Source: an uncultured bacterium
GTDB taxonomy: Bacteria; Eisenbacteria; RBG-16-71-46
Length of the DNA: 64,000 bases
Direction: 5' to 3'
NCBI GenBank assembly: GCA_964589945.1
Contig: CAZPVG010000009.1
Coordinates: 20,066-84,065, forward strand
A program made the translations under genes and the position numbers. A model generated the notes under the pieces. The model was not told the origin of the DNA and did not search any database. It saw nothing but the letters and a program-made list of their open reading frames with translations. Of this stretch, positions 12,099 to 47,071 are shown piece by piece; position 1 is the stretch's first letter, and each line of letters begins with the position of its first letter.

Positions 12099-13541
12099 AT
12101 GGAATCCTACGATCTCGTCGTCATCGGAAGCGGCCCGGGCGGACAGCGCTGCGCGGTGCAGGCCGCGAAGCTGGGCCGGAAGGTCGCGGTCGTCGAGCGC
12201 GAGCGCTCGATGGGCGGCGTCTGCATCAACACCGGGACGATCCCGAGCAAGACGATCCGCGAGGCGGTCCTCGACCTCTCCGGCATGCGCCAGCGCCGGC
12301 TCTACGGCGAGGAGTTCGCCCCGCGGCGCCGCGCGACCGCCGGGGACGTGCTGGCGCGGGCCCACCAGGTGATGACGGCCGAGCGCGAGGTCATCCGCGC
12401 GCAGCTCGAGCGCAACGGCATCCGCCTCGTCGCGGGCCACGGGCGGTTCACGGCGCCGCACACCGTGGTCGCCGAGGACGACGACGAGAGCGTGACGATG
12501 GAGGCGGCCTTCGTCGCCATCGCGGTGGGCACCGTGCCGGGTCTCCCGAAGGGCATCCAGGTGGACCACCGGACCGTGCTGACGAGCGACGACCTGCTGT
12601 CGCTGCCGGCGCTCCCCCGCCAGATGATGGTCGTCGGCGCCGGCATCATCGGGCTCGAGTACGGCAGCATGCTCGGCGCGCTCGGGGTCGAGGTCACCCT
12701 GGTGGACATGCGCACGGAGCTGCTCGAGATGGTGGACCGCGAGATCGTGGAGGCGTTCTCCTACCACGCCCGCGAGATGGGGCTCACGTTCCGCCTTGGC
12801 GAGGAGGTCGAGCGCATCGAGCCCGGCGCGAACGGCCAGGCGGTGGTGACGATGAAGAGCGGCAAGAGGACCGTCGCCGAGACCGTGCTGGTCTCCGCGG
12901 GCCGGCAGGGGGCGACCGCGGACCTCGGGCTCGAGAAGGCCGGGCTCGAAGCGGACGCGCGCGGCCGCCTCGCGGTGGACGGGCATTTCCGGACGAAGGC
13001 GCCGCACGTCTACGCGGTCGGGGACGTCATCGGCTACCCGGCGCTCGCCTCGACGAGCTCCGAGCAGGGCCGCCACGCGGCCTGCCACATGTTCGGCGTC
13101 GAGACGCGCGACGTCTCCGCGCTCTTCCCGTTCGGCATCTACGGCATTCCCGAGATCGGCTGGGTCGGCGCGACCGAGGCGGACCTCACGAAGCGCGGCG
13201 TGCCGTACGAGACCGGCGTCGCGCGCTACCGCGAGATCGCCCGAGGACAGATCCTCGGGGACCCGGACGGCATGTTGAAGCTGATCTTCCACATCGACAC
13301 CCGGAAGATCCTCGGCGTATGGTGCCTCGGGACGCAGGCGACGGAGCTCGTGCACATCGGCCAGGCGGTCATGTCGCTCGAGGGCACGCTCGACTACTTC
13401 CTCAACACGGTCTTCAACTACCCGACGCTCGCCGAGTGCTACAAGGTGGCCGCGCTCGACGGCTTCAACAAGGTCCGCGCCCTGGGTGAAGCTGCTCCGG
13501 GACTCGCGGCGACCCCGGCCACGAAGAACCGGACACCATGA
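12099..13541 (+). CDS. sthA: Soluble pyridine nucleotide transhydrogenase / class-I pyridine nucleotide-disulfide oxidoreductase
   Basis: YDLVVIGSGPGG, GGVCINTGTIPSK, GAGIIGLEYGS and a C-terminal dimerisation domain. GGAGAA ribosome-binding site upstream. Confidence 0.75.
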   Translation: MESYDLVVIGSGPGGQRCAVQAAKLGRKVAVVERERSMGGVCINTGTIPSKTIREAVLDLSGMRQRRLYGEEFAPRRRATAGDVLARAHQVMTAEREVIRAQLERNGIRLVAGHGRFTAPHTVVAEDDDESVTMEAAFVAIAVGTVPGLPKGIQVDHRTVLTSDDLLSLPALPRQMMVVGAGIIGLEYGSMLGALGVEVTLVDMRTELLEMVDREIVEAFSYHAREMGLTFRLGEEVERIEPGANGQAVVTMKSGKRTVAETVLVSAGRQGATADLGLEKAGLEADARGRLAVDGHFRTKAPHVYAVGDVIGYPALASTSSEQGRHAACHMFGVETRDVSALFPFGIYGIPEIGWVGATEADLTKRGVPYETGVARYREIARGQILGDPDGMLKLIFHIDTRKILGVWCLGTQATELVHIGQAVMSLEGTLDYFLNTVFNYPTLAECYKVAALDGFNKVRALGEAAPGLAATPATKNRTP

Positions 13542-13957
13542 GAACCGAGGGAACACTCCACCTGCAGTCGGTCGAGGGAACGGGCCTCCGCTTCGAGGCC
13601 CGTTTTCCCAAATTCAGCTTCACCGTGGACAGCGGCCCCGACGCCGTCGCGCCCGGCCCGATGGTAAACCTGCTCACCGCGATCGCCGCTTGCGGCGCGA
13701 TGGACGTCATCAGCATCCTGCGCAAGAAGCGCCTCGAGGTCACGGGCTACGAGGTCGCGATGGAAGGCGAGCGGGCCGAGACGCACCCGAAGCGCTACAC
13801 CTCGGTGACCCTCGTGCACCGCGTCACGGGCCGGAACGTGCCGCTGGACGCCGTCGAGCACGCCGTACGCAAGAGCGCGGAGAAGTACTGCTCGGTCCGG
13901 CACACGCTCGACCCGGCCATGCCCGTCACGGAGCGCTGCGAGGTGATCGAGGCCTGA
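13538..13957 (+). CDS. OsmC/Ohr-family peroxiredoxin
   Basis: 139 aa. Its ATGA start overlaps the sthA stop. OsmC-like Cys pair (AACGAMDV … KYCSVRHTL). Confidence 0.75.
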   Translation: MRTEGTLHLQSVEGTGLRFEARFPKFSFTVDSGPDAVAPGPMVNLLTAIAACGAMDVISILRKKRLEVTGYEVAMEGERAETHPKRYTSVTLVHRVTGRNVPLDAVEHAVRKSAEKYCSVRHTLDPAMPVTERCEVIEA

Positions 13958-14079
13958 GGGGTGTCCGTGCCCGCCCGGGCCGACTTGTGTAGCATCCGGC
14001 CGGGCGTCCCCGCGACGCCCGGCTTCGACCTTTCGCGCGAAAGTCCCGGCGCGCGACGCGCGCCTTCCAGGAGCCTGTC

Positions 14080-15480
14080 ATGCCCGAATATCGAACCGAA
14101 AAGGACAGCCTCGGCGAGATGAAGGTGCCCGCCGCGGCGCGCTACGGCCCGCAGACGCAGCGGGCCGTCGAGAACTTCCCCGTGTCGGGCCGGCCGATGC
14201 CGCCGGCGTTCATCCACACGCTCGGACTCATCAAGGTGGCCGCCGCGCGCGTCAACGCCCGGCTCGGCACGGTCGCGCCCGACGTCACGAAGGCGATCGA
14301 GGAGGCCGCGCTCGAGGTCGCGGGCGGGAAGTGGGACGCCGAGTTCCCGATCGACGTCTTCCAGACCGGGAGCGGCACGTCGTCGAACATGAACGCCAAC
14401 GAGGTCGTGGCGCACCGCGCGAGCGAGATCCTCGGGCGCAGGGTGCACCCGAACGACCACGTGAACTTCGGCCAGAGCAGCAACGACGTGATCCCGACCG
14501 CGCTGCACGTCTCGGCCGTGCTCGAGATCGAGCGTGAGCTGCTGCCGGCGCTCGCGGGCCTGTGGCAGGTGCTCGACGCCAAGGCGAAGGAGTTCCACGA
14601 CGTACTGAAGACGGGCCGCACGCACCTCATGGACGCGACGCCCATCCGTCTCGGCCAGGAGTTCTCGGGCTACGCCTCGCAGGTCCAGCACGGCATCGCC
14701 CGCGTCAAGGCCACGCTGCCCGACCTGCTCGAGCTCGCGATCGGCGGTACGGCCGTCGGCACGGGGCTCAACACGCATCCGGAGTTCGGGCGCCAGGTGG
14801 CGGCTGAGCTCTCGAAGCTCACCGGCCAGCGGTTCGTCGAGGCCCCGAACCACTTCGAGGCCCAGGGGGCCCAGGACGGGGCCTGCTGGGCGAGCGGCGC
14901 GCTGAACTCGGTCGCGGCGAGCCTGATGAAGATCGCGAACGACGTGCGCCTCATGAACAGCGGCCCGCGCTGCGGCCTCGGCGAGGTCTCGCTGCCCGCG
15001 ATCCAGCCGGGCTCGAGCATCATGCCCGGCAAGGTGAACCCGGTCCTCTGCGAGTCCGTCGTGCAGGTGGGCGCGCAGGTGATGGGCAACCACCTCGCGA
15101 TCACGGTCGGCGCGCAGTGGGGCCAGCTCGACCTGAACGTCATGCTCCCGCTCATCGCGCGCAACCTGCTGGAGAGCATCCACCTGCTCGCGGCGGTCTC
15201 GCGGGTGTTCGCCGACAAGGGCCTGCGCGGCCTCGTCGCGAACGCGGAGACCTGCGCGGGCTACATCGAGATCTCGCCGAGCATGGCGACGGCGCTGAAC
15301 CCGCTGATCGGCTACGACAAGGCGGCCGAGATCGCGAAGCGCTCGTTCAAGGAGCGCCGCCCCGTTCGCGAGCTCGCGCGCGAGATGACGTCGCTCGCGC
15401 CCGCGGAGATCGACGCCGCGCTCGACCCCACGCGGCAGACGAAGCCGGGGTTCGAAGCGGGGGGCGGGGCCGGAGGCTGA
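14080..15480 (+). CDS. fumC: Fumarate hydratase class II
   Basis: GSSIMPGKVNPV signature, TGSGTSSNMNANEV, 466 aa. Confidence 0.85.
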   Translation: MPEYRTEKDSLGEMKVPAAARYGPQTQRAVENFPVSGRPMPPAFIHTLGLIKVAAARVNARLGTVAPDVTKAIEEAALEVAGGKWDAEFPIDVFQTGSGTSSNMNANEVVAHRASEILGRRVHPNDHVNFGQSSNDVIPTALHVSAVLEIERELLPALAGLWQVLDAKAKEFHDVLKTGRTHLMDATPIRLGQEFSGYASQVQHGIARVKATLPDLLELAIGGTAVGTGLNTHPEFGRQVAAELSKLTGQRFVEAPNHFEAQGAQDGACWASGALNSVAASLMKIANDVRLMNSGPRCGLGEVSLPAIQPGSSIMPGKVNPVLCESVVQVGAQVMGNHLAITVGAQWGQLDLNVMLPLIARNLLESIHLLAAVSRVFADKGLRGLVANAETCAGYIEISPSMATALNPLIGYDKAAEIAKRSFKERRPVRELAREMTSLAPAEIDAALDPTRQTKPGFEAGGGAGG

Positions 15481-33854: not shown

Positions 33855-34413
33855 GACCCTGCTGCTGCTGGGCGTGATCGCGCTGTGGTCGGTGTCCTTC
33901 CAGCAGGGCTGCAAGGACCTCAAGAGCTCGCTGACGCACTGGCGCTACTACCCGATCCGCGACATGCGGCAGACCGTCGTGATCGACCCGCAGCGCTACG
34001 ACCCCACGCACCCGCAGTGGCTGACCTTCCGCGGTCCCGACTCGCTGGCGGTGCCGTCCATCGACGTGGACCGGCACATCGGCGAGGCGCCCTACGAGGA
34101 GACGGCGGGCCTGATCCACGACCCGGGCGTGTCGACCCCGGCGTCGATCGTCCGCGGCGACACCCTTTTCCACACGATCTGCACGCCGTGCCACGGCATG
34201 ACGATGAAGGGCGACGGCACCGTCGCGCCGTTCTTCATGCCCCCGCCCGACCTGCTCGCCGAGCAGACGCGCAAGCGGAGTGACGGCTTCATCTTCAGCT
34301 ACGTGCGCCACGGCGGCGTCGTGATGCCGTCGTACGGGAACGCGCTCTCGGCGCACGACGCATGGGACGTGATCCACTACCTCCGCCACATGCAGAAGGT
34401 CAATCCGCGATGA
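33847..34413 (+). CDS. actE: Alternative Complex III subunit ActE, monohaem cytochrome c
   Basis: Signal peptide with a Cys (QQGC, possible lipobox) and a single CTPCH haem motif. Overlaps actD by 8 nt. Confidence 0.8.
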   Translation: MPRTLLLLGVIALWSVSFQQGCKDLKSSLTHWRYYPIRDMRQTVVIDPQRYDPTHPQWLTFRGPDSLAVPSIDVDRHIGEAPYEETAGLIHDPGVSTPASIVRGDTLFHTICTPCHGMTMKGDGTVAPFFMPPPDLLAEQTRKRSDGFIFSYVRHGGVVMPSYGNALSAHDAWDVIHYLRHMQKVNPR

Positions 34414-35666
34414 ACCGAGAGGCCGTACTCCGCGACATCGCCGGCAAGCTGCCGGTGAAGCCGAACGCACGCAAGCGCCAGATCTGGATCGCCTGCCTGC
34501 TCGTCGGCGTCGCGTCGTTCGCGTTCCTGCTGGTGACGAACCCGCTTCGCGCCTGGGGCTCGTGGACGGTCAACACGCTCTACTTCCTCGGCATCGCCGA
34601 GGGCGCGCTCGCGTTCGCGGCGGCCTACCGGCTCGCGAACGGCAAGTGGGGCGGCCCGATCGTGCGCATCGCCGAGTCGTTCTCGGCCTACCTGCCGATC
34701 GGCATCGCGACGCTCGTCGTCCTGCTCGTGGCCGGGATCTGGAAGTACCTCTCGTGGACCCAGGCGGTCGAGCCGCGCATCCAGCCGTTCCTGAACGTGC
34801 CGTTCCTCTACGTGCGCACGCTGGGCGGCGCGCTGCTCTTCTGGTGGCTCGCGCGCAAGATGGTGCGCACCTCGCTGCGGCCCGACCTGCAGGCGCTCAA
34901 GCCGCACGTCTCGCCCGAGCTGAAGCCGGAGTACGAGAAGCTCACCGCGAACTGGAAGGGCGACGAGGCCGAGCGCGACTGGAACCGCCACGAGCTCGCG
35001 CACCTCTCGCCGCAGGTCGCGCTGGCGTTCGCGGTCTTCTTCACCGTGCTCGCGTGGGACTTCATCATGCTGCTGACGCCGAACTGGGTGACGGGCCTGT
35101 TCGGCTGGTTCGTCTGGGCCGGCGCGTTCATCTGCGGCGTCGCGGCGACGGCGCTCATGGCCACGCAGCTGCGCTCGAAATACCGGCTCGAGGCCTACAT
35201 CCGCACGAACATGTTCTGGGACATCGGCAAGGTCCTGTTCGCCTGGTGCATCTTCTGGGGCTACCTGTTCTGGTCGCAGTACCTGCCGATCTGGTACGCG
35301 AACATGCCCGAGGAGACGTGGTGGGTCTTCCTGCGCTTCGAGGAGCCGTGGCGCACGTTCTCGTTCGCGGCGTTCACGCTCATCTTCGTGATCCCGCTCG
35401 TCGGCCTGCTCAACAAGACCTCGAAGACGAACCCGATCCTGCTGCTCTCGTTCTCGCTCATCGTCCTCGCCGGCGTCTGGATCGAGCGGCACGTGCTCGT
35501 GATGCCGTCGCTGAACGCCGAGCACGCGTGGATCGGCCTGCCCGAGGTCGGCGTGACGATCGGGTTCCTCGGGCTGTTCGGCTGGGCGGTGCAGGGCTTC
35601 CTGACCAAGTTCCCCGCCGTGAACGTCATGGACGTCTTATCCGGCGCGCACGGGCCCGAGCACTAG
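34410..35666 (+). CDS. actF: Alternative Complex III subunit ActF (second NrfD-like membrane subunit)
   Basis: ATGA overlap with the actE stop. Polytopic membrane protein homologous in topology to ActC. Confidence 0.8.
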   Translation: MNREAVLRDIAGKLPVKPNARKRQIWIACLLVGVASFAFLLVTNPLRAWGSWTVNTLYFLGIAEGALAFAAAYRLANGKWGGPIVRIAESFSAYLPIGIATLVVLLVAGIWKYLSWTQAVEPRIQPFLNVPFLYVRTLGGALLFWWLARKMVRTSLRPDLQALKPHVSPELKPEYEKLTANWKGDEAERDWNRHELAHLSPQVALAFAVFFTVLAWDFIMLLTPNWVTGLFGWFVWAGAFICGVAATALMATQLRSKYRLEAYIRTNMFWDIGKVLFAWCIFWGYLFWSQYLPIWYANMPEETWWVFLRFEEPWRTFSFAAFTLIFVIPLVGLLNKTSKTNPILLLSFSLIVLAGVWIERHVLVMPSLNAEHAWIGLPEVGVTIGFLGLFGWAVQGFLTKFPAVNVMDVLSGAHGPEH

Positions 35667-35684
35667 CGAGCGTTCACGCACCTT

Positions 35685-35726
35685 CGCGCCCGGGTCCGTT
35701 CGATGGACCCGGGCGCGCGTGTTTTC
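35685..35726 (+). terminator. Rho-independent terminator after actF
   Basis: 13-bp stem CGCGCCCGGGTCC / GGACCCGGGCGCG with a 7-nt loop, followed by GTGTTTT, 19 nt downstream of the actF stop. Confidence 0.7.
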
Positions 35727-35763
35727 CGCCGGCGGGCCGCGGCGCGGCGCCGGCACGGTTGGC

Positions 35764-35850
35764 GCCGGGATGGCGAAACTGGCAGACGCAGCGGACTTAA
35801 AATCCGCTGGGCTTCGGCCCGTGCAGGTTCGATCCCTGCTCCCGGCACCA
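35764..35850 (+). tRNA. tRNA-Leu (anticodon TAA), 87 nt with long variable arm, CCA encoded
   Basis: Acceptor stem GCCGGGA/TCCCGGC, anticodon loop CTTAAAA, extended variable arm GGGCTTCGGCCCG, T-arm GGTTCGATCC, 3' ACCA. Confidence 0.85.
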
Positions 35851-35893
35851 ATCGCGCGCGTTCACGATGCGCGTGGAGGGACCCGCTGCAGGC

Positions 35894-37828
35894 CTAGCGG
35901 AGCCAGACGAGCCGCCGCGACTGCGATTCGCCCGCGCGCGTGAAGCGCACCCAGTACAGCCCGGGCTGTGCACGGCCATTGTCGGACTGGCCGCGCCAGC
36001 GCAGCGTGCCGGTCGCGGGGCCGAGCGCCGCGCCCCAGATCCGACGGCCCGAGAGGTCCAGGACTTCGACTCGTCCGGCGGATCCCACCGAAGGCGGCAC
36101 GAACTCGACGCTGCCCTGCGCGATGGTCGGGCGAACGGAGAAGGAGAGTCGTGGAGTGGTCGTCGCAACGGCAGTCGTGTTCGGGCACGATTCCGGCAGC
36201 GCGCCAATGAGGCCGTAGAGGCCGCCCGCGCCGCACGGGGAGCCCTGTTGCAGGCCCAGGTCGCCCGACGCGAGGTCGCAGAGCCTCGGATCCACCGTGA
36301 GGTTGCTGTCGAGGGACGACCACGCGCCAACGAACGGCGCGACGTAATTGTCCCAGGCATCGTTGAAGGCGAACGACCCCGGGGACTGCGTCGGAAACGC
36401 GCCTCCATACCGGGCGTTCAGGACCGAGAGGTTCCGCTGGACGACCACCGGCGATCCGGTTGGCGGGTTCGGAGACTCGACGCGCAGGCCGTCGCCACCG
36501 TTCAGCACGCAGGTATTGGACGCCAGCGAGTCGGGCATATCCGGCGGTGGATACGACCCCGGTTGCAGCACGATGCCATCACCGCTGTTGGCCCATGCGA
36601 CATTACCGACGACCGAAACCCCGGTGGCGTCCAGCCGGAAGCCCGCGCCGCCGTTGTGGTCGCTCTGGCAGTCCCAGACCGTCGATGTGAACCACGGGGG
36701 ATCCGATGCCGTCGTCGTCTCGGCGATGAGGCGGATGCCATCACCCGCAACATGGGTGACACGCGAGTGAACAAGTCTGAGGGCACTGTACTGGTTCCTG
36801 AGGCGAATTACGATGCCGTCAGCTTCCGCACCATCGACCAACAGGTTCGTCAGATAATGGCCTGGGAAGTGCGCCCAATCCGGCGCAATGGTGAGGGCGT
36901 CCCCGGTTGAGGAAAGTACGGTGTCTGCAACGAGTCCAAGGACTGGAGCATAGGAAGCTGGACATGGCAGCCAGCGAATGGCGCTTCCACAACGCTCGAA
37001 GCGGGAGTTCGAAACGAAGAGTTGCGTGTCGTGGATGGTGGTGGTGTCGCATTCTGCGTTCGACTGCTCGAGCCAGATCGCGTTGCCAGCGATATCTTGC
37101 ACTACACAGGACTCGAGATCGGTGACTCCGTTGCAGACGACCCCGTTCGACGCAGTCTTGAAGTGACAGTTGCTGAAGATGACCGCATCGGGGGTGCTTC
37201 CCCGAGCGAGCACGAGCGTATCTGCGGGTCCTTCAAAAGAGCAGTTCTCAAAGGAGACGGGCCCCGTGGCGCAGGTGGAAGCGTGCAGCGGCGCGCTGTG
37301 AAAATGCAGCCCGTCGAAGCGGAGAAGATTGCTGCTATCGTAGCACTCTAACCAGGTCCGGCCGCAGAAGTCGCAGTTGTGAAAGTTCGGTCCCCCGGGC
37401 GCAGCCACGGAGTTCACCCGGCCCAGAAAGACGCAACTGCGAAACTCGACGGCGATTCCGTCCAGGCTAACCCCCTTTGCATAGGTCAGGCCCACGACGT
37501 GCCAGCTACTCGAAGATAACCGGGGCGCGTCAATGCTGCTTGCCGTCGTTACCGCTGGCCCACCCGACCCCACGATGACGACAGTGGGAATAGCGAAGGA
37601 GAAGCGGAGTGTGTCCGGGTACTCCCCGGGGCTTACGAGGATTGAATCCCGCGGCGAAACGACGAGTTGGTCGATCGCCGGCTGAATGTTTGTGAAATCG
37701 CCGCCGCCGTTGATGTCGACGAGATAGTGCGAGGCGCGCGCCGTCGAGGGCGTGAGCAAGGCCGCGAGGCAGCCCGCGATGATCAGCGCGAGAGGCGCGC
37801 GGGAGAGTCGCGCGAGGGGAGCGTGCAT
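35894..37828 (-). CDS. Secreted right-handed parallel beta-helix (pectate-lyase/NosD-like) protein with a T9SS C-terminal sorting domain
   Basis: Start trimmed to M at 37828 (GGAGGA ribosome-binding site, signal peptide MHAPLARLSRAPLALIIAGCLAALL). Many Asn/Cys/Gly-rich beta-helix repeats. C-terminal ~80 aa (…VEVLDLSGRRIW…GLYWVRF…RLVWLR) match the Por_Secre_tail pattern. Confidence 0.7.
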   Translation of the reverse strand: MHAPLARLSRAPLALIIAGCLAALLTPSTARASHYLVDINGGGDFTNIQPAIDQLVVSPRDSILVSPGEYPDTLRFSFAIPTVVIVGSGGPAVTTASSIDAPRLSSSSWHVVGLTYAKGVSLDGIAVEFRSCVFLGRVNSVAAPGGPNFHNCDFCGRTWLECYDSSNLLRFDGLHFHSAPLHASTCATGPVSFENCSFEGPADTLVLARGSTPDAVIFSNCHFKTASNGVVCNGVTDLESCVVQDIAGNAIWLEQSNAECDTTTIHDTQLFVSNSRFERCGSAIRWLPCPASYAPVLGLVADTVLSSTGDALTIAPDWAHFPGHYLTNLLVDGAEADGIVIRLRNQYSALRLVHSRVTHVAGDGIRLIAETTTASDPPWFTSTVWDCQSDHNGGAGFRLDATGVSVVGNVAWANSGDGIVLQPGSYPPPDMPDSLASNTCVLNGGDGLRVESPNPPTGSPVVVQRNLSVLNARYGGAFPTQSPGSFAFNDAWDNYVAPFVGAWSSLDSNLTVDPRLCDLASGDLGLQQGSPCGAGGLYGLIGALPESCPNTTAVATTTPRLSFSVRPTIAQGSVEFVPPSVGSAGRVEVLDLSGRRIWGAALGPATGTLRWRGQSDNGRAQPGLYWVRFTRAGESQSRRLVWLR

Positions 37829-38554
37829 GGCTGTTCCTCCGACCGACGGCCGCATCCATGCTTCGTAGGGTGACCTTGGTGGGAATGCTAGCACCCGTGA
37901 GCCGTAGCGCCGAGACGTTGCCTCCGACGATCTCGCGGTTGGTACCCCTCGCCAGGACTGCACGGACTCAACTAGGTGTCCGGGTGAGGGGCGGGGACGT
38001 CTTGGGTGGGTTCGGGGTGTTGCGGGTGTTGCGGCTGTTTCGGGCTCCAAGGAGGGGCGCCTCGACGTGCCCGCCATTGCGCGAGGACATGTTCCTTGTC
38101 CAAGGATGCAGGCGCCTCCGAGTGATCGAACGTCACACGGGCGGGTGCAGTTGTCCCGCAGTTGGCGCTCGGCGCTGGACGCTGGTCTAGAGCGCCAAGG
38201 ATGCCTTCTGCTGGCCTCGTGAGAGCTGTCTTGATTCAACACTCACGCAGGATGCGGGGACGTGCCACGGGGCTGCCGTGCATAGCCAGCTTTGGGGGAG
38301 ACGACGCCGCCGACCTGGTCCCGCGTATGTGAGCGGGTCCCCGGTCGAGACATGAGCAGCCCACCGCGCCCGTCTCCATACCCCCCGGGTTGCGCTGTGC
38401 TAGTTCTGTGTCAGAACCATCCGGAGCGACCGGTGGCTGTGTGTTCGAATCAGTCACTACGCCTCTGGGGCGCCACGCATCGCAGCCGCCAATGATGCCC
38501 GTTCGGACGCGTTCGGCACCGATGCTTCCGACCGCGCCAATTGCGGTGCTAGCC

Positions 38555-38609
38555 CTTAAGACCCGCTGGGCGAAAGCCCGTGCAGGTTCGATCCCTGCTC
38601 CCGGCACCA
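38555..38609 (+). repeat. 3' fragment of tRNA-Leu (direct repeat; last 30 nt identical to 35821-35850), att-like scar
   Basis: GTGCAGGTTCGATCCCTGCTCCCGGCACCA is identical. The upstream 25 nt are diverged. No 5' acceptor or D-arm, so it is not a functional tRNA. Confidence 0.7.
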
Positions 38610-38716
38610 CAACGGCGACTCGGTGCGACGGGCGACGGTCCCCGTTCTGTCCCCGAGTGACGAATCGCTCGCGGCTTCACGGGCTCGGGTGAATCGGCGC
38701 TGCTCGCCGGACCGCG

Positions 38717-39586
38717 CTACTTCTTCTCCGCCGGCTCGACCAGCTTCGCAACCAGCGTCCGCAGCGCCGAGCGCCACGGCTCCATCCCGCCTTCGGCGGG
38801 GGCGACGATCGAAGCCAGGTCGTCCTCGGTGAGGGTCTCCTGGGCGCCGAGCACGGAGGCGCCGAAGCGCGTCCGGCGGGCGAGGAGCCCCTCGGCGCCG
38901 ACCCGCATGACGCGTCCGGCGGGCGTGAGCACCACGCCGGTGAGCTGCAGGACCTGCACCGGTGTGTCGAGCGAGGTGAGCCAGGGCACCGGCATCGTGC
39001 GGTCGGTGCCGATCTCGATGACCTTCCCACCCTTCCAGGTGGCCTGGCGCACCCACTGCTCCTCGAACCCGAGCTGGATCGCGACGACCGCGTCGATCGA
39101 GTCGCCGGCGCCGGCGATCGCGCGCTCGCGCCAGGCGCGGCCGGGCTCCTCGACGCCGAACGTCATGCGGCGCGGGGGGCCGGGGTCGATCTCGTCCGAT
39201 CCGCGGGGCAGGCCGTCGGGCCCGGTCCCGCCGCGCCGGCAGCCGAAGCGCACGTTCGGTCCGTCGCGCAGGGGCCAGTCGCCGCCGGGCAGCGGAGCGG
39301 TCAGCTCGATCCGGTCCAGCTCGAGTCGGAGCGAATCGAGCAGCGCCGCGAGGGCGGGGGAGCGGTCGGGCGTGGGATCCAGCGAGGCCGGGTCGTCGCG
39401 GAAGGAGACCGCGACGTGCGCGACGCGGTCCTCCGCGGCGGGCGGCTTGCCGTGATAGAAGGGCGGCCGGTCGAAGTCGCCGCGGAAGACCTCCGCGGCG
39501 GCGGGGGCGGCGGACAGTGCGACCAGCAGGCCGAGAAGCACGAAGCGCTCCGGGCGCGCGGCCCGCATTCCAAAGGTGGGGTTCAT
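38717..39586 (-). CDS. Hypothetical exported protein
   Basis: 289-aa ORF with an N-terminal signal peptide (alternative start at 39568). No recognisable motif. Confidence 0.45.
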   Translation of the reverse strand: MNPTFGMRAARPERFVLLGLLVALSAAPAAAEVFRGDFDRPPFYHGKPPAAEDRVAHVAVSFRDDPASLDPTPDRSPALAALLDSLRLELDRIELTAPLPGGDWPLRDGPNVRFGCRRGGTGPDGLPRGSDEIDPGPPRRMTFGVEEPGRAWRERAIAGAGDSIDAVVAIQLGFEEQWVRQATWKGGKVIEIGTDRTMPVPWLTSLDTPVQVLQLTGVVLTPAGRVMRVGAEGLLARRTRFGASVLGAQETLTEDDLASIVAPAEGGMEPWRSALRTLVAKLVEPAEKK

Positions 39587-40285
39587 TGGCGCGGCAACCT
39601 AGACGTGGCCGGTTGGCCGGTCAAGAAGCAAGGACGCCGGCCTCGGCTCGCTCCCGGCGACCCTTCTCGCATCGCCTCCCGCGTCGGGACCGGCCCCCGG
39701 CGATGCCGCCGCGTTCGTCCGAGGGAGCCACGTTTCAACTGTTCCCACGGACCAGAATGCTCTCCGGCGCTTCGCATCACTCGCGAACGTGGACGCACGA
39801 GAGTTCTCGCTCGCACGACCCGCGACCGCCAATGCCCCGTCGGGAGAAACCGCCGCCCCCCCGATTGCAGGGTCCTGACTCATGCCAGCAGACTGCCCGC
39901 TGACCGACTACGGGAGTCCCGGAGGGTCATGCTACTTCCGGATACTTGCGCGTTGTTCCTTGAAGGTTACTCTGTTTCCTGAATCACGATCCTGATGCTG
40001 GGGTCAGTACACAACCAGGTTCAGTCCGTGCCGCGCTGAGCCGAGACATCTTTCGGTGGGAGTTCCGCTCGGCGCGGCTTGATGGAATGGGCCGCGATCC
40101 TGTTGGGGTGCGGTCCCGTTCCGGCGGGATTGGAGCCGTTCGCAAGACGGCCCCGGTCCCTTGACACCGGCAACACGACAACAACGCGTCCCTGCGGGAT
40201 TCGAAGGCCCGAGCAAGTCGCATCTCGGCCCGTGGTGCGCGACAGGATTCGCAAGCAACAGGCACGAATGCCGAGGGAACACCAC

Positions 40286-41233
40286 ATGTCACGTGAGATG
40301 GCGTTGCGACGTCTGCCCCTCATTCTCGCGTTGTTTGCGGGTCTGGCGGTCCTGGCCGGCTTCTCCGTGGCGAAGCCGAGCGCCGAGACCGGGGTTCACG
40401 AGAGCCAGGCCTGCCTCGATTGCCACGACGGGATGGACGCGACGCTCGTCGGCACGGCGCACCGGGTCACCGGCAAGGGGGCCCGCGTCGCCTGCACCGA
40501 CTGCCATGCCGGGCCGAGCGCGCACTGGGAGGACGACCCGGAGAAGAACCCGATGCCCAACCCGGGGAAGATGACCTCCACGGCGGAGGCCCGGGTGTGC
40601 ACCCAGTGCCACGAGAACTCGCACCAGCAGAACATGCTCGAGAAGAACGTGCACGCCATGAACAACGTGGCGTGCAGCGCGTGCCACAGCGTGCACGGGT
40701 CGAAGCACTACTCGCTGCTGCGCAAGCCGCAGAACGAGCTGTGCGAGTCCTGCCACACGCGCGTGGCCGGCCAGTTCGCACGGCCGTACCGCCATCCGAT
40801 CGAGGAAGGCGTCATCCAGTGCACCGACTGCCACATGACGCTCGACCGGACCACCCGGCCCCTTTCCAAGGACGGCACGAACGTCTGCCTGAAGTGCCAC
40901 GGCGACCTCGCCGGGCCGTTCCCCTACGAGCACGAGGCCACGCTCGATCACTCGACCGAAGAGGGCGGCTGCATCTCGTGCCACGACCCGCACGGCTCGT
41001 CGCTTCCGCGCATGCTCAAGCAGCCTTACCAGCCGCCGCACGAGCAGCTCTGCACGCAGTGCCACTCGATCCCGCCCAAGCACCTCTCGAACCGGATGCA
41101 CGGGACGCGCTGGAACGGCGTGGCCTGCAACGAGTGTCATACCGACATCCACGGCTCCTACGACAACCGGTGGCTCCTGAGCACGTCCCTTCGGGCTCAG
41201 GGCTGCATGAACGGGGCCTGTCATGGCCGCTAG
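40286..41233 (+). CDS. Periplasmic decahaem c-type cytochrome, MtrA/MtoA/PioA-like
   Basis: Signal peptide, then 10 CxxCH motifs in ~290 mature residues, plus a terminal C-x4-CH. The size and haem density are those of the MtrA family. Confidence 0.75.
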   Translation: MSREMALRRLPLILALFAGLAVLAGFSVAKPSAETGVHESQACLDCHDGMDATLVGTAHRVTGKGARVACTDCHAGPSAHWEDDPEKNPMPNPGKMTSTAEARVCTQCHENSHQQNMLEKNVHAMNNVACSACHSVHGSKHYSLLRKPQNELCESCHTRVAGQFARPYRHPIEEGVIQCTDCHMTLDRTTRPLSKDGTNVCLKCHGDLAGPFPYEHEATLDHSTEEGGCISCHDPHGSSLPRMLKQPYQPPHEQLCTQCHSIPPKHLSNRMHGTRWNGVACNECHTDIHGSYDNRWLLSTSLRAQGCMNGACHGR

Positions 41234-41246
41234 GACGGTGTCCGAC

Positions 41247-42815
41247 ATGCGAACTCAGAGGATGGCAGTGGGGATCGCGGCGCTGATGCTCCTGGCCGGC
41301 GCGAGCGTGGCGGGAGCGGCGAAGCTGAACGGCACCGTGAAGGTGGGCAACATCTTCCTGGACGAGACGGGCGACCGCTCGACGGTCCAGGAGACCTTCG
41401 ACATCTACGACGGCTTTGCGGTCAGCCAGGTCCTGCTCGACGGCAGCCTGCAGCCCCAGAGCCGGTTCGTGCTCGACCTGCGCGACATCAACCTCGACTC
41501 GCGCCAGGGGAACTTCAACTATCGCCTGCCCGGCCTCTTCAAGGTGCGGGCGGCCTACGACCAGAACCGCTACGTGTTCGATCCCGGCCGCGGCGTCACG
41601 TCGGAGCGCAAGAACTGGCAGGTCGGGCTGCAGGTCACCCCGATGAAGTCGCTCGTGCTCTCGGGCGACCTCAACCGCATCACGCGCACGGGTGACCGGC
41701 TCTCGTTCCCGCCCGAGCCGGGAACGCTGCTCGGCACCGTCAGCTCGCTCGGGACGCGCTACGACAACGCGCTGCTCAACTCACAGTTCGGCGCCGAGTA
41801 CCACCGGGGCCGCGCGGGCGGGGCCGTCTCCGTCCAGCTCTCGGACTACTCGGACGACCTCAACGGCACGGCCGACCGGAAGGGGCAGGTGTGGGCGGCG
41901 CGGCTCTACGCCCCGATGCCGTTCTACAACCGGTGGAACAACCTGTTCCGGGCGTCGTACGGCACGCGCAAGCTCACCGACGGCGGGGTCGAGTACAAGA
42001 TGTCGAGCTTCCAGTACACGGGGATCCTGGCGCCGCGCGAGTCCTACCAGCTGCGGTACGCGTTCGAGGCGAGCCGCGTGAAGGACAACGCGCTCGACCT
42101 GCAGACGGACCGCATCCAGAACGACCTCGACGCGACCTGGTTCCACAAGTACGGGAACCTCAACGCCGGCTTCGGCTACGAGACGAACGACGACGACATC
42201 ACGCTGACCGACTACATGAGCTGGCACGCGGGAGGCTCGTTCCGCCCGGACAAGCGCCTGAACGTGCGGTTCGAGTACAACGGGCGCGTGAAGAACGACC
42301 AGGAAGACCTGACGCTGCTCAAGGACATTGAGTCGGCGAGCTACCGCGGACGCCTCGAGATCCGGCCGAACGATCGCATCACGCTCGGCGGGGAGTACGC
42401 GAAGCGGCGCCGCGAGATGCCGGACATCCAGGTCGTGGTGAGCGGCATCACGGCCGGCGCGTTCGCGAGGTACGAGCAGCCGAAGTGGGGTGCCGCGTCG
42501 CTCGACTACACCCACGCCATCGACGAGTACGACGACCGTCTCGCGCCGTTCAATGTCGTGACCGCGATCACGACGGCGCGGGTGGATCTCTCGCGGATCA
42601 AGAACCTGGATCTCGCGAGCGGCGTCACCTACCTCGACATCGGACGCGACCTCGACATCGAGAAGTCCATCGTGTTCGTGGAGGGGGGATACAAGTTCGC
42701 GGGCCGCTATCACCTGGATGCGAAGTACAACGTCTACAACTACGACGACTACATCCTGCTCGACCGTTACTACACGGCGAACGTCGTCCGGGTGAACCTC
42801 GGATACGACCTGTAG
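41247..42815 (+). CDS. Outer-membrane beta-barrel protein, candidate MtrB/MtoB/PioB-like porin partner of the adjacent cytochromes
   Basis: Signal peptide (AGASVAGAA), no Cys, and alternating amphipathic Tyr/Gly/Asp/Asn-rich beta-strand pattern throughout. 522 aa. Starts 14 nt after the decahaem gene stop. Family assignment is by context and composition only. Confidence 0.55.
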   Translation: MRTQRMAVGIAALMLLAGASVAGAAKLNGTVKVGNIFLDETGDRSTVQETFDIYDGFAVSQVLLDGSLQPQSRFVLDLRDINLDSRQGNFNYRLPGLFKVRAAYDQNRYVFDPGRGVTSERKNWQVGLQVTPMKSLVLSGDLNRITRTGDRLSFPPEPGTLLGTVSSLGTRYDNALLNSQFGAEYHRGRAGGAVSVQLSDYSDDLNGTADRKGQVWAARLYAPMPFYNRWNNLFRASYGTRKLTDGGVEYKMSSFQYTGILAPRESYQLRYAFEASRVKDNALDLQTDRIQNDLDATWFHKYGNLNAGFGYETNDDDITLTDYMSWHAGGSFRPDKRLNVRFEYNGRVKNDQEDLTLLKDIESASYRGRLEIRPNDRITLGGEYAKRRREMPDIQVVVSGITAGAFARYEQPKWGAASLDYTHAIDEYDDRLAPFNVVTAITTARVDLSRIKNLDLASGVTYLDIGRDLDIEKSIVFVEGGYKFAGRYHLDAKYNVYNYDDYILLDRYYTANVVRVNLGYDL

Positions 42816-42928
42816 CCGTGACGCAGTGGAAGCGGGGCCTGACTCCGGTCGGGATTCCGCGTGATCTCGATTCGGAGATGAAAGTGCAGAGTGCAATGGG
42901 CCGATTCAGCCTGAGGGAGGGTGCGGCG

Positions 42929-43930
42929 ATGCTTCTTCTGAAGAGGGTGGTGTTGCTGTCGGCGGTCGCCTTGGTGGCGTTCGGCTTGACGGCGTGTGAG
43001 CGCAAGATCACGCGGATCGAGCTCGCCTCGGGACCGCTGACGTGCGCGGACTGCCACAACACGAGCAGCCTGATCACGGGCAAGGAAACCGAGTGGGCGG
43101 AGTCCGTGCACGGCACGGGCACGGCCTACCTCCGCGGGACGAGCGCGGGCTGCGCGGGCTGCCACTCCGGCGGCGCGTTCGTGAAGATGATTGCGGCGGG
43201 CCAGAACCCGGGTACGGTCACCGAGGGTGACCCGGATCCGACGCGCCAGGACTGCCGTACCTGCCACAACATCCACACGACCTACACGATGGCGGACTTC
43301 TCGCTCCGGACGACGGCGCCGGTGAACCTGTTCGCGATGGATACCCCGACGGTCTTCGATGGCGGCGAGGGCAACCTGTGCGCGAACTGCCACCAGCCGC
43401 GGCGCGACGGCCCCGTGGCCGTGAACGGTACGATCACCGGGATCTCGACCCACTGGGGTCCGCACCACGGACCGCAGAGCGCGATGCTCCTCGGTGTCGC
43501 GGGCGCCGGCGTCACGGGCACCCCGGCCGGCCACTACCAGGGCGTGCCGAACACCTGCGTGACCTGCCACCTGGGTTCCGGGCTGGACCACCACTTCGAG
43601 CCGTCGGCCACGACGTGCGCGAAGTGCCACCCGGGCGCGACGAACTTCGACATCGACAACGTCCAGACCGAGATCGCGGCCCTCGGCGACTCGCTCGGCG
43701 AGATGCTGCTGAACCTCAATCTCATCAGCGAGAACAGCCCGGACGGGCACCCGACGGTCACTTCGGCGCCGGAGGCCCAGGGCGTCGCGCTCTACAACTG
43801 GCTCTACGTCATGCACGAGGACAAGAGCATGGGCGTCCACAACGCCGACTACGCCCGGGCGCTGCTGCAGAAGGGCCTCCAGGAGCTGTCGCCGGCTCCG
43901 AAGGGCGTGGGGGCGGTCGCCCGGCGGTAG
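42929..43930 (+). CDS. Hexahaem c-type cytochrome lipoprotein
   Basis: GAGGGAGG ribosome-binding site, lipoprotein signal MLLLKRVVLLSAVALVAFGLTAC, six CxxCH motifs (CADCH, CAGCH, CRTCH, CANCH, CVTCH, CAKCH). Confidence 0.75.
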   Translation: MLLLKRVVLLSAVALVAFGLTACERKITRIELASGPLTCADCHNTSSLITGKETEWAESVHGTGTAYLRGTSAGCAGCHSGGAFVKMIAAGQNPGTVTEGDPDPTRQDCRTCHNIHTTYTMADFSLRTTAPVNLFAMDTPTVFDGGEGNLCANCHQPRRDGPVAVNGTITGISTHWGPHHGPQSAMLLGVAGAGVTGTPAGHYQGVPNTCVTCHLGSGLDHHFEPSATTCAKCHPGATNFDIDNVQTEIAALGDSLGEMLLNLNLISENSPDGHPTVTSAPEAQGVALYNWLYVMHEDKSMGVHNADYARALLQKGLQELSPAPKGVGAVARR

Positions 43931-44018: not shown

Positions 44019-44290
44019 TGCGCTTCCGCGGCCCGGGCCGGTGCCTTCCCGGCGGCCCCGCCTCCGGCCCCCCATGGTCCCGCCTGGCCGGGCCAGCCCC
44101 CTCAAGCCGGAAGGCCGCTCCTGCCGAAAACGAGGACCGGGTCTCCGTACCGTTCTCCCCCCGGGGACGGACCCTGACGCTCCCCGAGGGGCCCGGTGCC
44201 ATCTGAGATATGGTGCCGCCCATCCATCCTCTGACCGTGACCTTCGGAAGCCGCGCACGGTCCGAGCGCGCCGTTTTCCGAGGGAAAAGC

Positions 44291-47071
44291 ATGTCCGGAC
44301 CACACGATTTCGTCCTGCGCGCGAACGCCGACTACATCGACCAGCAGTTCGCCCGCTGGCAGGCCGATCCGTCCTCCGTCCCTCCCGAATGGGCCCTCTT
44401 CTTTGCCGGCGTGGACCTGGGCTCCCGCCGGGAAACGGGCGAGGTCCCGACCCAGGCCCGCTCCGAGGCGGGGGTCCGCAGCCTGATCCACGCCTATCGT
44501 GAGTTCGGGCACCTCGTCGCCCGGCTCGACCCCCTCGGCACGGGCGAGACCCGCCATCCGCTCCTCGAGCTGGAGGCTTCGGGGCTCGGTCCTGCGGACT
44601 TCGACCGGGAGGTCCGCGGGGCGCCGTTCCTCGGCGAGTTCGGCGGAACGCTCCGGCAGCTCGTCGAGGCGCTGCGCACGACCTACTGCGGTACGCTCGC
44701 GGTCGAGTACCTCGACATCGCGGACGCCGCCCAGCGTGACTGGCTCGCGGACCGGATCGAGCGCGGTCTCAACCGCCCGAGCCTCTCGCCGGCCGAACGC
44801 ATCCGCATCCTCCGCTCGATGCTCGTCGCCGACGGGCTCGAGCAGTTCCTGCACGCGCGCTACACGGGGCAGAAGCGCTTCTCGCTCGAGGGCGCCGCCA
44901 GCCTCATCCCGATGTTCGAGGCCCTGACGATCGAAGCGGGGCTGCTCGGAGTCGAGTCGCTGCAGATGGGCATGCCGCACCGCGGGCGGCTCAACTTCCT
45001 CGCGAACATCATGAAGAAGCCGCTCGAGGCGATCTTCAGCGAGTTCGAGGCGAGCTTCGCGCCGGTGGACGTGCAGGGCCACGGTGACGTGAAGTACCAC
45101 CTCGGCTACTCGAGCGTCATGCCGTTGCCGAACGGGCGCAGCATCGCGCTGAGCCTGTGCTACAACCCGAGCCACCTCGAGTTCGTGAACCCCGTCGTGC
45201 TCGGCTCCCTGCGCGCCAAGCAGGAGGCGGCGGGGGACGCCGCCCGCACCCGCGGCGTTCCGGTGCTGATCCACGGCGACGCGGCGTTCGCGGGCGAGGG
45301 CATCGTGGCGGAGACCCTGGCGCTGGGGCAGCTGCCGGGCTACGTCACGGGCGGCACGATCCACGTCATCGTGAACAACCAGATCGGGTTCACGACCTCG
45401 CCGAAGGCCACGCGCCCGACCCGGTACCCGACGGCGATCGCGCGCGCGCTCGACGTCCCCGTCTTCCACGTGAACGGGGACGATCCCGAGGCCTGCGTGC
45501 GGGCGATGTCGCTCGCGCTCGCGTGGCGCATGCGGTTCCAGCGGGATGTGTTCATCGACCTCGTCTGCTACCGCAGGCACGGCCACAACGAGATGGACGA
45601 TCCGACCTTCACGCAGCCCGTGATGTACAGGGCGATTTCCTCGCACGTGCCGGCATCACGCCGGTACGCCGAGCGGCTCGTGGCCGAGGGTGTTCTCGAC
45701 CAGGCGGCGCTCGGCAAGATCGAGACCGAGATCGACTCCAGCTTCCGGGCCGCCCACCGCCGGGCGACGAACGCGCCGGTGCCGCCCGTGCGCGGCACGC
45801 CCTCGGGCATGTGGCGCGGCCTCGACTGGGCCGCCGAAGACTGGTCGGCCGACACGCGCGTGCCGCGGGAGACGCTCGAACAGGTCCTGCACGGACTCAC
45901 GAAGCTGCCGGAGGGGTTCCAGCCGCACCGCAAGATCGCCCAGCTCGCGGCCGACCGCCGGAAGATGTTCCTCGAGGACCGCATCGACTGGTCGCTCGGC
46001 GAGGCGCTGGCCTACGGATCGCTGCTGCTCGAGGGGCGCAACGTGCGCCTGACCGGGCAGGACTCCGGGCGCGGCACGTTCACGCACCGGCACGCCGTCC
46101 TTCACGACGCGGAGGACGGGCGGATGTGGACGCCCCTGCAGCACCTCGCCCAGGAACAGGGCCGCTTCGAGATCCTCGACACCATGCTGAGCGAGGCCGC
46201 CGTGCTCGGCTTCGAGTACGGCTACAGCACGGCCGACCCGCACACGCTCTGCCTCTGGGAGGCTCAGTTCGGCGACTTCACGAACGTGGCCCAGGTGGCG
46301 GTGGACCAGTTCGTCGCGAGCGGCGAGGCGAAGTGGGGCCGCATGTCGGGGCTCACGCTCCTGCTGCCGCACGGCTACGAGGGACAGGGGCCGGAGCACT
46401 CGAGCGCCCGCCTCGAGCGGTTCCTCGAGCTGTGCGCCGACCGCAACCTGCAGGTGTGCAACCTCACGACGCCGGCGCAGCTCTTCCACGCGCTGAGGCG
46501 CCAGCTCCACCGGCGCTTCCGCAAGCCGCTCGTGATCATGAGCCCGAAGAGCCTGCTGCGGCACAAGCTCGCGGTCTCGGCCGTGTCCGAGTTCGAGTCG
46601 GGCACCTTCCAGCCCGTGATCGACGACCGGAAGACCGATCCGGCCGCGGTGAGCCGCGTGCTCGTCGTCTCGGGCAAGTTCTACTACGCCCTGCTCGAGG
46701 CCCGGGCCGCCTCGAAACGCGACGACGTCGCGATCATGCGGCTCGAGCAGCTCTACCCGTTCCCCGGCGGCGAAGTGAAGGCGGCGCTTGCGCGCTACCC
46801 GAACCTCCGGGACGTGCTCTGGGTGCAGGAAGAGCCGGCGAACATGGGGGGCTGGCGCGCGATGCGACACCGCATCGACGGCGTCACGCCGCCCGGCGCG
46901 CGCCTGCGGCGTGTCTCCCGTCCGTCGTCGTCCTCGCCGGCGACGGGCTACTACCTGCTGCACCAGCAGCAGGAGCGGCAGATCCTGGCGGAGGCGTTCG
47001 AATCGGCCGCCCCCGGCGACGGGGCGGCGCCGGCCGCCGCCGGTCGCACTTCGAAGGGAGTGAAGCGATGA
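44291..47071 (+). CDS. sucA: 2-oxoglutarate dehydrogenase E1 component
   Basis: 927 aa, conserved N-terminus …YIDQQF…W, TPP motifs. GAGGGAAAAG ribosome-binding site. Confidence 0.9.

Follow-up and report, generated by a model that had tools for sequence, protein, structure and literature searches.

The window analysed here is a 64-kb stretch of contig CAZPVG010000009.1, the host of which is, on sequence grounds, a Candidatus Eisenbacteria bacterium. Its single tRNA gene, a tRNA-Leu(UAA) on the plus strand (35764-35850; detected by ARAGORN and matching Rfam RF00005 with 57 bits), stands downstream of an alternative complex III (ACIII) operon that encodes a molybdopterin/FeS subunit, ActD, a cytochrome c and, as the last gene, an ActF-like protein (34362-35666). 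Between this tRNA gene and a displaced copy of its 3' part (38555-38609, plus strand) lies an islet of 2.76 kb, which consists of one intact gene on the minus strand (the cargo gene, 35894-37828), coding for a protein of 644 amino acids with a parallel beta-helix, and of 726 nt of non-coding DNA (37829-38554). An earlier note on this DNA had described the same arrangement, with one gene and about 700 nt of non-coding DNA between the repeats.

The 30-mer GTGCAGGTTCGATCCCTGCTCCCGGCACCA at the tRNA gene's 3' end has two exact occurrences in the window (35821-35850 and 38580-38609). No match to it was found in 100 dinucleotide-preserving shuffles with three mismatches permitted (0/100), which rules out chance as the source of the repeat. 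The exact recurrence of the tRNA 3' end that had been noticed earlier is even longer than claimed, as reading of the sequence extends the identity to 34 nt (35817-35850 and 38576-38609). A repeat search delimits a direct repeat of 55 nt with 89% identity and a spacing of 2759 nt, the first copy of which (35796-35850) runs from the anticodon loop to the CCA end of the tRNA and the second of which (38555-38609) is recovered by nhmmer with E=2e-15. A diverged anticodon and variable-arm stretch does precede the exact repeat, as the note had it, but since the exact part is 34 and not 30 nt, the diverged part is 21 nt long. All six differences between the copies are confined to the first 21 of the 55 positions (C(21,6)/C(55,6) = ~0.002), which marks a genuine boundary between a diverged, older part and one that was duplicated recently. 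Two of the differences, CTTAAGAC versus CTTAAAAT, lie at the 5' edge of the repeat and may be element arm sequence or later drift.

The homology of the displaced copy begins at the anticodon loop (CTTAA, position 38555), a canonical sublocation, and the variable-arm hairpin is kept, with the loop GAAA where the tRNA has TTCG. The 5' half of the tRNA is missing altogether, and no tRNA is called there by ARAGORN or Rfam, in agreement with the earlier judgement that the copy is not a foldable tRNA. The sole Rfam match at E<=1 on 37800-38750 is a sub-threshold, spurious 'Plastid-ycf2' that lies opposite the T-arm, on the other strand; for the fragment there is neither an Rfam family nor a conserved structure, which speaks against the repeat being part of a conserved regulatory structure. 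The orientation of the fragment (a 3' part on the same strand, downstream of the intact tDNA) is that expected for integration.

In composition the islet differs from its surroundings, both in the cargo gene and, as had been noticed earlier, in the non-coding DNA. The GC content at third codon positions (GC3) of the cargo gene is 0.77, dropping to 0.66 mid-gene, whereas that of 29 confident neighbour genes is 0.945±0.023 (minimum 0.886), so that the cargo gene is more than 7 standard deviations lower. A family member at an unrelated locus of another genome (L026) has a host-like GC3 of 0.94; low GC3 is thus not intrinsic to the beta-helix family. The non-coding spacer has 65.7% GC, compared with 72.1% in the window as a whole and 72-78% in the intergenic DNA on either side. 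Most of it (37896-38554, about 660 nt, likewise 65.7% GC) may be degraded element DNA.

Neither the islet, as the note had said, nor the 64-kb window contains an integrase, according to Pfam and NCBIfam searches of all open reading frames (ORFs) of the interval and to an integrase-family hidden Markov model (built from 120 integrases) that gave nothing at E<=1 against the window in six frames. The ORFs of 37896-38554 have no Pfam or NCBIfam match and Rfam has no family in the 726-nt spacer, while tblastx of the spacer against all fetched loci returned composition-driven noise only. A tblastn search of the islet with element proteins from seven related loci (L008, L020, L077, L029, L031, L013 and L036, introduced below) gave only trivial overlap with the tRNA fragment. 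The search of 37829-38554 for integrase or excisionase remnants, which the note had suggested, thus detected none.

The tRNA-Leu(UAA) gene in related loci

Searches with ActF retrieved 25 related loci from species-representative genomes (nearly all labelled Candidatus Eisenbacteria, with up to 73% identity) and 44 further loci from metagenomes (up to 82% identity), fetched with only 10 kb of flank. A tRNA-Leu(UAA) follows ActF in 50 of them. In five loci other than the window (L008, of which L039 is the same sequence, L077, L020, L037 and L043) tyrosine integrases of one family are found beside this tRNA. The integrase of L008 (DATJYG010000884.1), a protein of 391 amino acids with Phage_integrase and Int_N domains, is encoded on the opposite strand and ends 16 nt past the tRNA-Leu, the last 31 nt of which are those of the window repeat; beyond it lie genes for a D5_N/DUF5906 primase-helicase, an NHL-repeat protein and others, all with GC3 of 0.64-0.81. 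In L077 an integrase 85% identical to that of L008 stands likewise 16 nt from the tRNA-Leu, in an element of more than 10 kb with a gene for an HTH_17 (Xis-like) protein. In L020 the integrase beside the tRNA is 50% identical and is accompanied by a homologue of the L077 HTH_17 protein, and the short contigs of L037 and L043 terminate within integrase genes just past the tRNA. A further integrase ORF (P0117) overlaps a tRNA-Leu. The integrase family has 557 matches at E<=1e-20; a scan of IMG/VR with the L008 integrase found only a 36-residue match at 36% identity. L008 is labelled Polyangiaceae and L020 Saccharimonadaceae, yet both have the Eisenbacteria-type ACIII-tRNA-Leu locus with an ActF 63-67% identical to that of the window, and these labels are probably binning or taxonomy errors in public metagenome-assembled genomes.

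An nhmmer profile of 50 tRNA 3' halves, run against the fetched loci, detected nine other tRNA-Leu 3' fragments in four loci (one in L013, three in L014, two in L029 and two in L036), all downstream of the tRNA and on the same strand. Downstream sequence of 3 kb or more was available for 26 loci, of which five carry fragments and three carry integrases. The homology of the L013 and L036 fragments likewise starts at the anticodon loop. The bracketed segments measure 0.3-4.9 kb and carry NHL-repeat proteins (L013 and L014), a protein of 1058 amino acids that passes the TIGR04183 threshold (L014), a restriction-modification pair with a beta-helix homologue (L029) and a protein kinase (L029). Inside the bracketed segment of L013 we also noted an insertion sequence-type DDE transposase (DDE_Tnp_1_4; 12830-14416), split in two ORFs, as a secondary insertion.

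Fragments 2 and 3 of L014 (18208-18255 and 18542-18576) are about 330 nt apart with no gene between them, and they share their upstream arm (…TTGTTGC.GA.GGTAGCCGCGTG.GTCC…). From their sequence, related elements seem to have integrated here twice in succession, and one of them to have been cut down to a gene-less scar; such a scar implies that deletion does happen at these sites. A search for integrase arm sites among k-mers in the arms beside the fragments and tRNAs found none that are shared beyond the relatedness of L008, L077 and L020 and the local duplication in L014.

The tRNA genes themselves vary. The intact tRNA-Leu(UAA) genes of L022 (7356-7442) and L056 (1407-1493) read CTTAAACCCCGC, which leaves the base of the anticodon stem with an A31·C39 mismatch; their CCCGC is also present in the window fragment, as is the G37 (CTTAAGA) of the L041 tRNA. 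These variants may be traces of an earlier replacement of the 3' half by elements. In L063 an inverted, anticodon-defective tRNA-Leu-like copy (198-281, minus strand) lies 5 kb upstream of the real tRNA-Leu (5398-5481, plus strand), with the ACIII genes in between; the two T-arms are identical, and the copy is the only fragment that is not in the integration-type orientation.

The contig ends less than 1 kb past the tRNA-Leu in 17 of the 50 loci (for example L040, L054, L041, L037 and L056), in one of them only 64 nt past it, which is expected if assemblies break at a strain-variable integration hotspot. The only window gene to the right of the tRNA that is met again in related loci is sucA (44210-47071), at 4.8-6.7 kb from the tRNA in L007, L016 and L061 as against 8.4 kb in the window. 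The integrases and the co-oriented fragments support the view that the tRNA-Leu(UAA) gene is a phylum-wide integration hotspot in Candidatus Eisenbacteria.

The flanks of the islet were compared in the same set. On the left, an intrinsic-terminator-like hairpin just upstream of the tRNA (35685-35717, plus strand; 15 pairs followed by a T-run) closes the ACIII operon and belongs to the native flank; it is the sole part of the spacer between ActF and the tRNA that is kept in L031, L079 and L033. The 43 nt that join the end of the tRNA to the cargo stop codon (35851-35893) have no similarity to the DNA that follows the tRNA in any related locus. The first native-looking gene right of the islet (38717-39586, minus strand; 289 amino acids, GC3 0.94) has no family assignment, and none of the fetched loci has a homologue of it. 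At 40079-43930, immediately right of the islet flank, we noticed a multihaem cytochrome cluster, composed of a DmsE/MtrA-like decahaem protein of 384 amino acids (TIGR03508, 164 bits, which is below the cutoff of that model), a protein of 530 amino acids without family match and a multihaem protein of 481 amino acids with GC3 of 0.78. The cluster may be an Mtr-like conduit for extracellular electron transfer.

The cargo gene and its family

The cargo protein carries a signal peptide (MHAPLARLSRAPLALIIAGCLAALLTPSTARA, with a cleavage-like end between ARA and S, as read from the sequence), a right-handed parallel beta-helix and a C-terminal beta-sandwich. The Beta_helix model PF13229 matches it with 40 bits (cutoff 25.9 bits) and matches 22 of 22 family members. 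An AlphaFold2 model obtained from 22 family members (pLDDT 82.8) consists of a long right-handed beta-helix followed by a six-strand beta-sandwich (residues 564-642). Foldseek comparison with the PDB returned phage tailspikes, PL6 lyases, alginate epimerases and GH87 glucanases with TM-scores mostly of 0.15-0.31, low values which imply a resemblance to polysaccharide-active beta-helices at the fold level only; a sequence search of the PDB with the cargo protein gave nothing at E<=1.

The earlier note had seen in this gene a secreted beta-helix protein with a sorting domain of the type IX secretion system (T9SS). The beta-helix is confirmed and a signal peptide can be read from the sequence, but the T9SS domain remains below threshold. 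The full-length protein has no match to TIGR04183 or PF18962; for its last 99 amino acids alone TIGR04183 is the only match, with 18.2 bits (E=0.0019) against a cutoff of 23 bits; the L031 and L029 homologues score 21.4 and 15.8 bits, respectively. Because (i) this sub-threshold match is accompanied by a weak FlgD_ig match on the last 94 amino acids (E=0.022), (ii) the C-terminus aligns end to end with that of the PF18962-positive protein P0024 (E=1e-5), and (iii) other Eisenbacteria proteins in the fetched loci exceed the TIGR04183 cutoff, the beta-sandwich is probably a diverged T9SS type A sorting domain.

Upstream of the cargo gene, the leader region (37829-37895, minus strand) is 81-89% identical to the DNA upstream of the L029 and L031 homologues, with which about 65 nt before the cargo ATG are shared. 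It holds a GGAGGA ribosome-binding site, a CCAAGGTCACCC.ACGAAGCATGGA motif and an extended -10-like TGCTAGCAT, from which we infer a promoter role; a scan of 35600-38800 with the sigma-70 consensus found no promoter-like site. The motif CCAAGGTCACC(C.ACGAAGCATGGA) is placed 35-55 nt before the start codon of the beta-helix genes in the window (37855-37879), in L029 (9767-9791) and in L031 (3901-3926). A shorter form occurs in L030, L032 and L079, so that the motif is met both at the tRNA locus and at a Mut7-C/TldD locus (see below), and it is absent in L026; it could be a family-specific regulatory site or a 5' leader. The cargo gene is intact and probably expressed.

The family is small, with only 24 homologues among 5.8 billion proteins, the best of them 47% identical, and a scan of IMG/VR with the beta-helix family alignment found no relative. 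Of the nine genomic contexts that were read, four (the window, L029, L031 and L079) are found downstream of tRNA-Leu and ACIII, all in one convergent orientation, three (L030, L032 and L080) are at the Mut7-C/TldD locus, and one (L026, with the copies L027 and L028) is elsewhere. L031 and L079, the closest relatives of the window by ActF (82% identity), have beta-helix proteins that are 47% and 43% identical to that of the window, respectively, and 52.6% identical to one another, with 87% identity in ActF. In both of them an extra gene of 216-217 amino acids stands between the tRNA and the cargo gene, the GC3 of the latter is 0.78-0.82 as compared with 0.96-0.98 in the ACIII genes, and no tRNA fragment is found. 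The neighbour-joining tree of the family is star-like and the tRNA-linked copies form no clade in it; a vertical and a horizontal history are therefore not separable from the tree.

Origin and age of the islet

The reading that we favour, and hold to be moderately probable, is that a tyrosine-integrase element inserted at the tRNA-Leu(UAA) gene and that its integrase and core genes were later lost, which left an islet resembling a CIME (a cis-mobilizable element). The element would have entered the tRNA gene site-specifically; its own tRNA 3' copy would have regenerated the gene at 35764-35850 (the attL side), and the original 3' part would have been displaced to the far end of the insert, 38555-38609 (the attR side). 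Subsequent deletion of the integrase and the other core genes would have spared both attachment (att) scars, the cargo gene and about 0.7 kb of non-coding DNA. The empty attB predicted from this scheme is the tRNA-Leu 5' half through ...GCCCGTGCAGGTTCGATCCCTGCTCCCGGCACCA joined to CAACGGCGACTCGGTGCGAC, and the predicted circular junction is ...GGTGCTAGCCCTTAAGACCCGCTGGGC...GGCACCA joined to ATCGCGCGCGTTCACG.

Three lines of evidence make a decayed island the best fit: the foreign GC3 of the cargo gene, the integrases at the same tRNA in relatives and the co-oriented 3' fragments in four loci. The same evidence supports the attL/attR signature of site-specific integration that the note had recognised, as well as the decayed-island option it had offered. 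The distribution of tRNA variants is consistent with the proposed exchange. The last 47 nt of the fragment are identical to the tRNA-Leu 3' part of L033 (80% ActF identity), and its variable loop, GAAA, is the one commonly met in the phylum, the TTCG of the window tRNA being found otherwise only in L010. This fits a displaced original end and a tRNA 3' part supplied by the element, and would place the crossover between the anticodon loop and the variable loop, in the 'anticodon-centred' class.

Some indications of age can be drawn from the flank. Except for the terminator, the spacer between ActF and the tRNA cannot be aligned between the window and relatives with 80-82% ActF identity, yet the 55-nt fragment, which is not under selection, is essentially undecayed. 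This suggests that the fragment is younger than those splits, and thus that the insertion is young relative to the split from the nearest relatives. As the cargo proteins are only 43-47% identical, too diverged for change in place since then, the cargo allele of the window most likely came with the integration event.

Several observations weigh against this scheme. No remnant of an integrase, excisionase or other element gene was detected in the islet, so that the integrase which the element is presumed to have possessed has to be assumed. Only 43 nt separate the tRNA from the cargo stop codon, which means that a deletion must have cleared the stretch between attL and the cargo gene quite neatly. 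There is no integrase in the other nine bracketed segments of relatives either, a more uniform picture than random decay suggests. L031 and L079 carry beta-helix homologues at the same tRNA without any fragment, and the association may thus be partly ancestral. Finally, no empty site was found among about 70 related loci; the synteny after the tRNA is not conserved even at 82% ActF identity, which leaves the closest relatives uninformative about an empty site. An exact search of Joint Genome Institute (JGI) metagenomes for the junction of the fragment with the right flank gave 0 matches.

The uniform lack of integrases can be explained in another way, which is the main rival reading and which we regard as a less likely possibility: the 2.7-kb unit may be a cassette that was never autonomous, made up of a promoter, a gene for a secreted protein and an att site, and moved in trans by an integrase specific for tRNA-Leu that some other element, such as one of the L008 type, encodes. 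All ten bracketed segments seen are at most 5 kb long and without integrase; in the window, in L013, in the second segment of L014 and in both segments of L029 the gene adjacent to attR reads toward the tRNA, and cargo types (beta-helix, NHL and T9SS-tailed proteins) recur. A cassette would also account for the tight 43-nt junction and for a fragment that is essentially undecayed while no other element gene is left. Excision would still be possible across the 34-nt identity, and autonomous elements with a matching att sequence do exist in the phylum. However, no conserved arm sequences are common to the cassettes, or to these and the elements of L008, L020 and L077, no integrase of the L008 family is encoded in the 64-kb window, and neither a circular form nor an empty site was observed. 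The gene-less 'cassette' of about 330 nt in L014 points to deletion instead, and as the loci span 10 kb downstream, larger, integrase-bearing members of the arrays would escape detection.

A broader version of the cassette proposal makes the tRNA-Leu(UAA) gene after ACIII a shared docking platform in Candidatus Eisenbacteria, at which small integrase-less cassettes would be inserted, stacked and exchanged in trans by a family of tRNA-Leu-specific tyrosine integrases on separate P4-like elements. A cassette would hold a tRNA 3' fragment, a promoter and a single gene for a repeat protein (beta-helix, NHL or Ig-rich) that is secreted or T9SS-tailed. We consider this platform reading unlikely.

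It is also quite improbable that the beta-helix gene is an old, vertically inherited and fast-evolving resident, and that gene conversion with the tRNA maintains the repeat or the fragment is itself functional. L031 and L079 (82% ActF identity) as well as L029 do have homologues past ACIII and tRNA-Leu that are convergent in the same way, and the 65-nt upstream leader is shared with the window copy. Against long residence, the proteins are 43-53% identical where ActF is 82-87% identical, and their GC3 of 0.77-0.82 is found in hosts with core genes at 0.95-0.98, whereas the L026 paralogue is fully ameliorated; the tRNA-linked copies form no clade in the star-like tree, L031 and L079 lack a fragment, and no Rfam family or conserved structure suggests a function for the one in the window.

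That the second copy is the decayed pseudogene of a tandemly duplicated tRNA-Leu, unrelated to mobile DNA, is hardly credible and was rejected: the copy is co-oriented and retains the variable-arm hairpin with a different stable tetraloop, but its homology starts abruptly at the anticodon loop with the 5' half wholly gone, the DNA between the copies is compositionally foreign, four other genomes show a like arrangement at this tRNA, together with elements that bear integrases, and the other 49 related loci have a single tRNA-Leu here and no second, full-length paralogue.

Significance and comparison with known systems

Taken alone, the islet is a textbook integration scar that changes nothing conceptually, of an ordinary kind in an unusual phylum. 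What the related loci document is a conserved hotspot in an uncultured candidate phylum, with its cognate integrases and fragment arrays, and a phylum-restricted family of secreted beta-helix proteins that is tied to the tRNA-Leu hotspot in four genomes. Island finders that require an integrase would overlook every fragment-bracketed islet met here. Should trans-mobilisation of cassettes be real, this locus would offer a simple, natural means of diversifying surface proteins and a candidate site-specific docking site for genetics in the phylum; a docking platform, if real, would amount to an integron-like diversification of the repertoire of cell-surface and secreted proteins. We also considered an integron-type cassette array and rejected it, as the window has no integrase and the cassettes have no attC-like or conserved arm sequence in common besides the tRNA fragment.

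One comparison is with genomic islands integrated in tRNA genes, as mapped by Islander, whose paper lists Williams 2002 (PMC100330) among its references. Islander maps islands by finding foreign DNA enclosed between an intact tRNA gene and a downstream copy, in the same orientation, of that gene's 3' part (Hudson, Lau and Williams, PMC4383910), and its 'anticodon centered attP' class comprises 2083 of 3919 islands (PMC4383910, Table 1). The islet resembles these islands in having a regenerated tRNA gene and a displaced, co-oriented 3' fragment at its ends, with homology from the anticodon loop, and the hotspot resembles theirs in having tyrosine integrases at the same tRNA in relatives and tandem arrays. 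Unlike them, it is only 2.7 kb long, has a single gene, belongs to an uncultured candidate phylum and has no integrase inside, for which reason the integrase filter of Islander would reject it.

The islands at ssrA of Dehalococcoides (PMC3146451) are tandem, with repeated direct repeats of the ssrA 3' end. Their likeness to our locus lies in a single-copy small-RNA gene that serves as a recurrent hotspot and in niche-specific cargo, while the target gene and the phylum differ. Among satellite elements of the P4 type, to which the comparison extends by domain content only, L008 is similar in that its integrase abuts the tRNA 3' end and is accompanied by a D5_N/DUF5906 primase-helicase; the window islet carries neither integrase nor primase.

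A further parallel is offered by CIMEs, which are decayed integrative and conjugative elements (ICEs) or integrative and mobilizable elements (IMEs) with attL and attR kept and the genes for integration and transfer lost (PMC5704250). The islet has likewise kept both att scars and has no recombination or transfer genes, and related loci show tandem accretion at the target. For a possible descent from an ICE or IME, and for mobilisation after accretion with an incoming element, the fragment arrays in L014, L029 and L036 are circumstantial evidence. A difference lies in the intact relatives: L008 and L077 carry the integrase, the D5-type primase-helicase and HTH_17, and no conjugation genes were found in about 10 kb of each. 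By this comparison, the window islet fits the description of a CIME-like islet.

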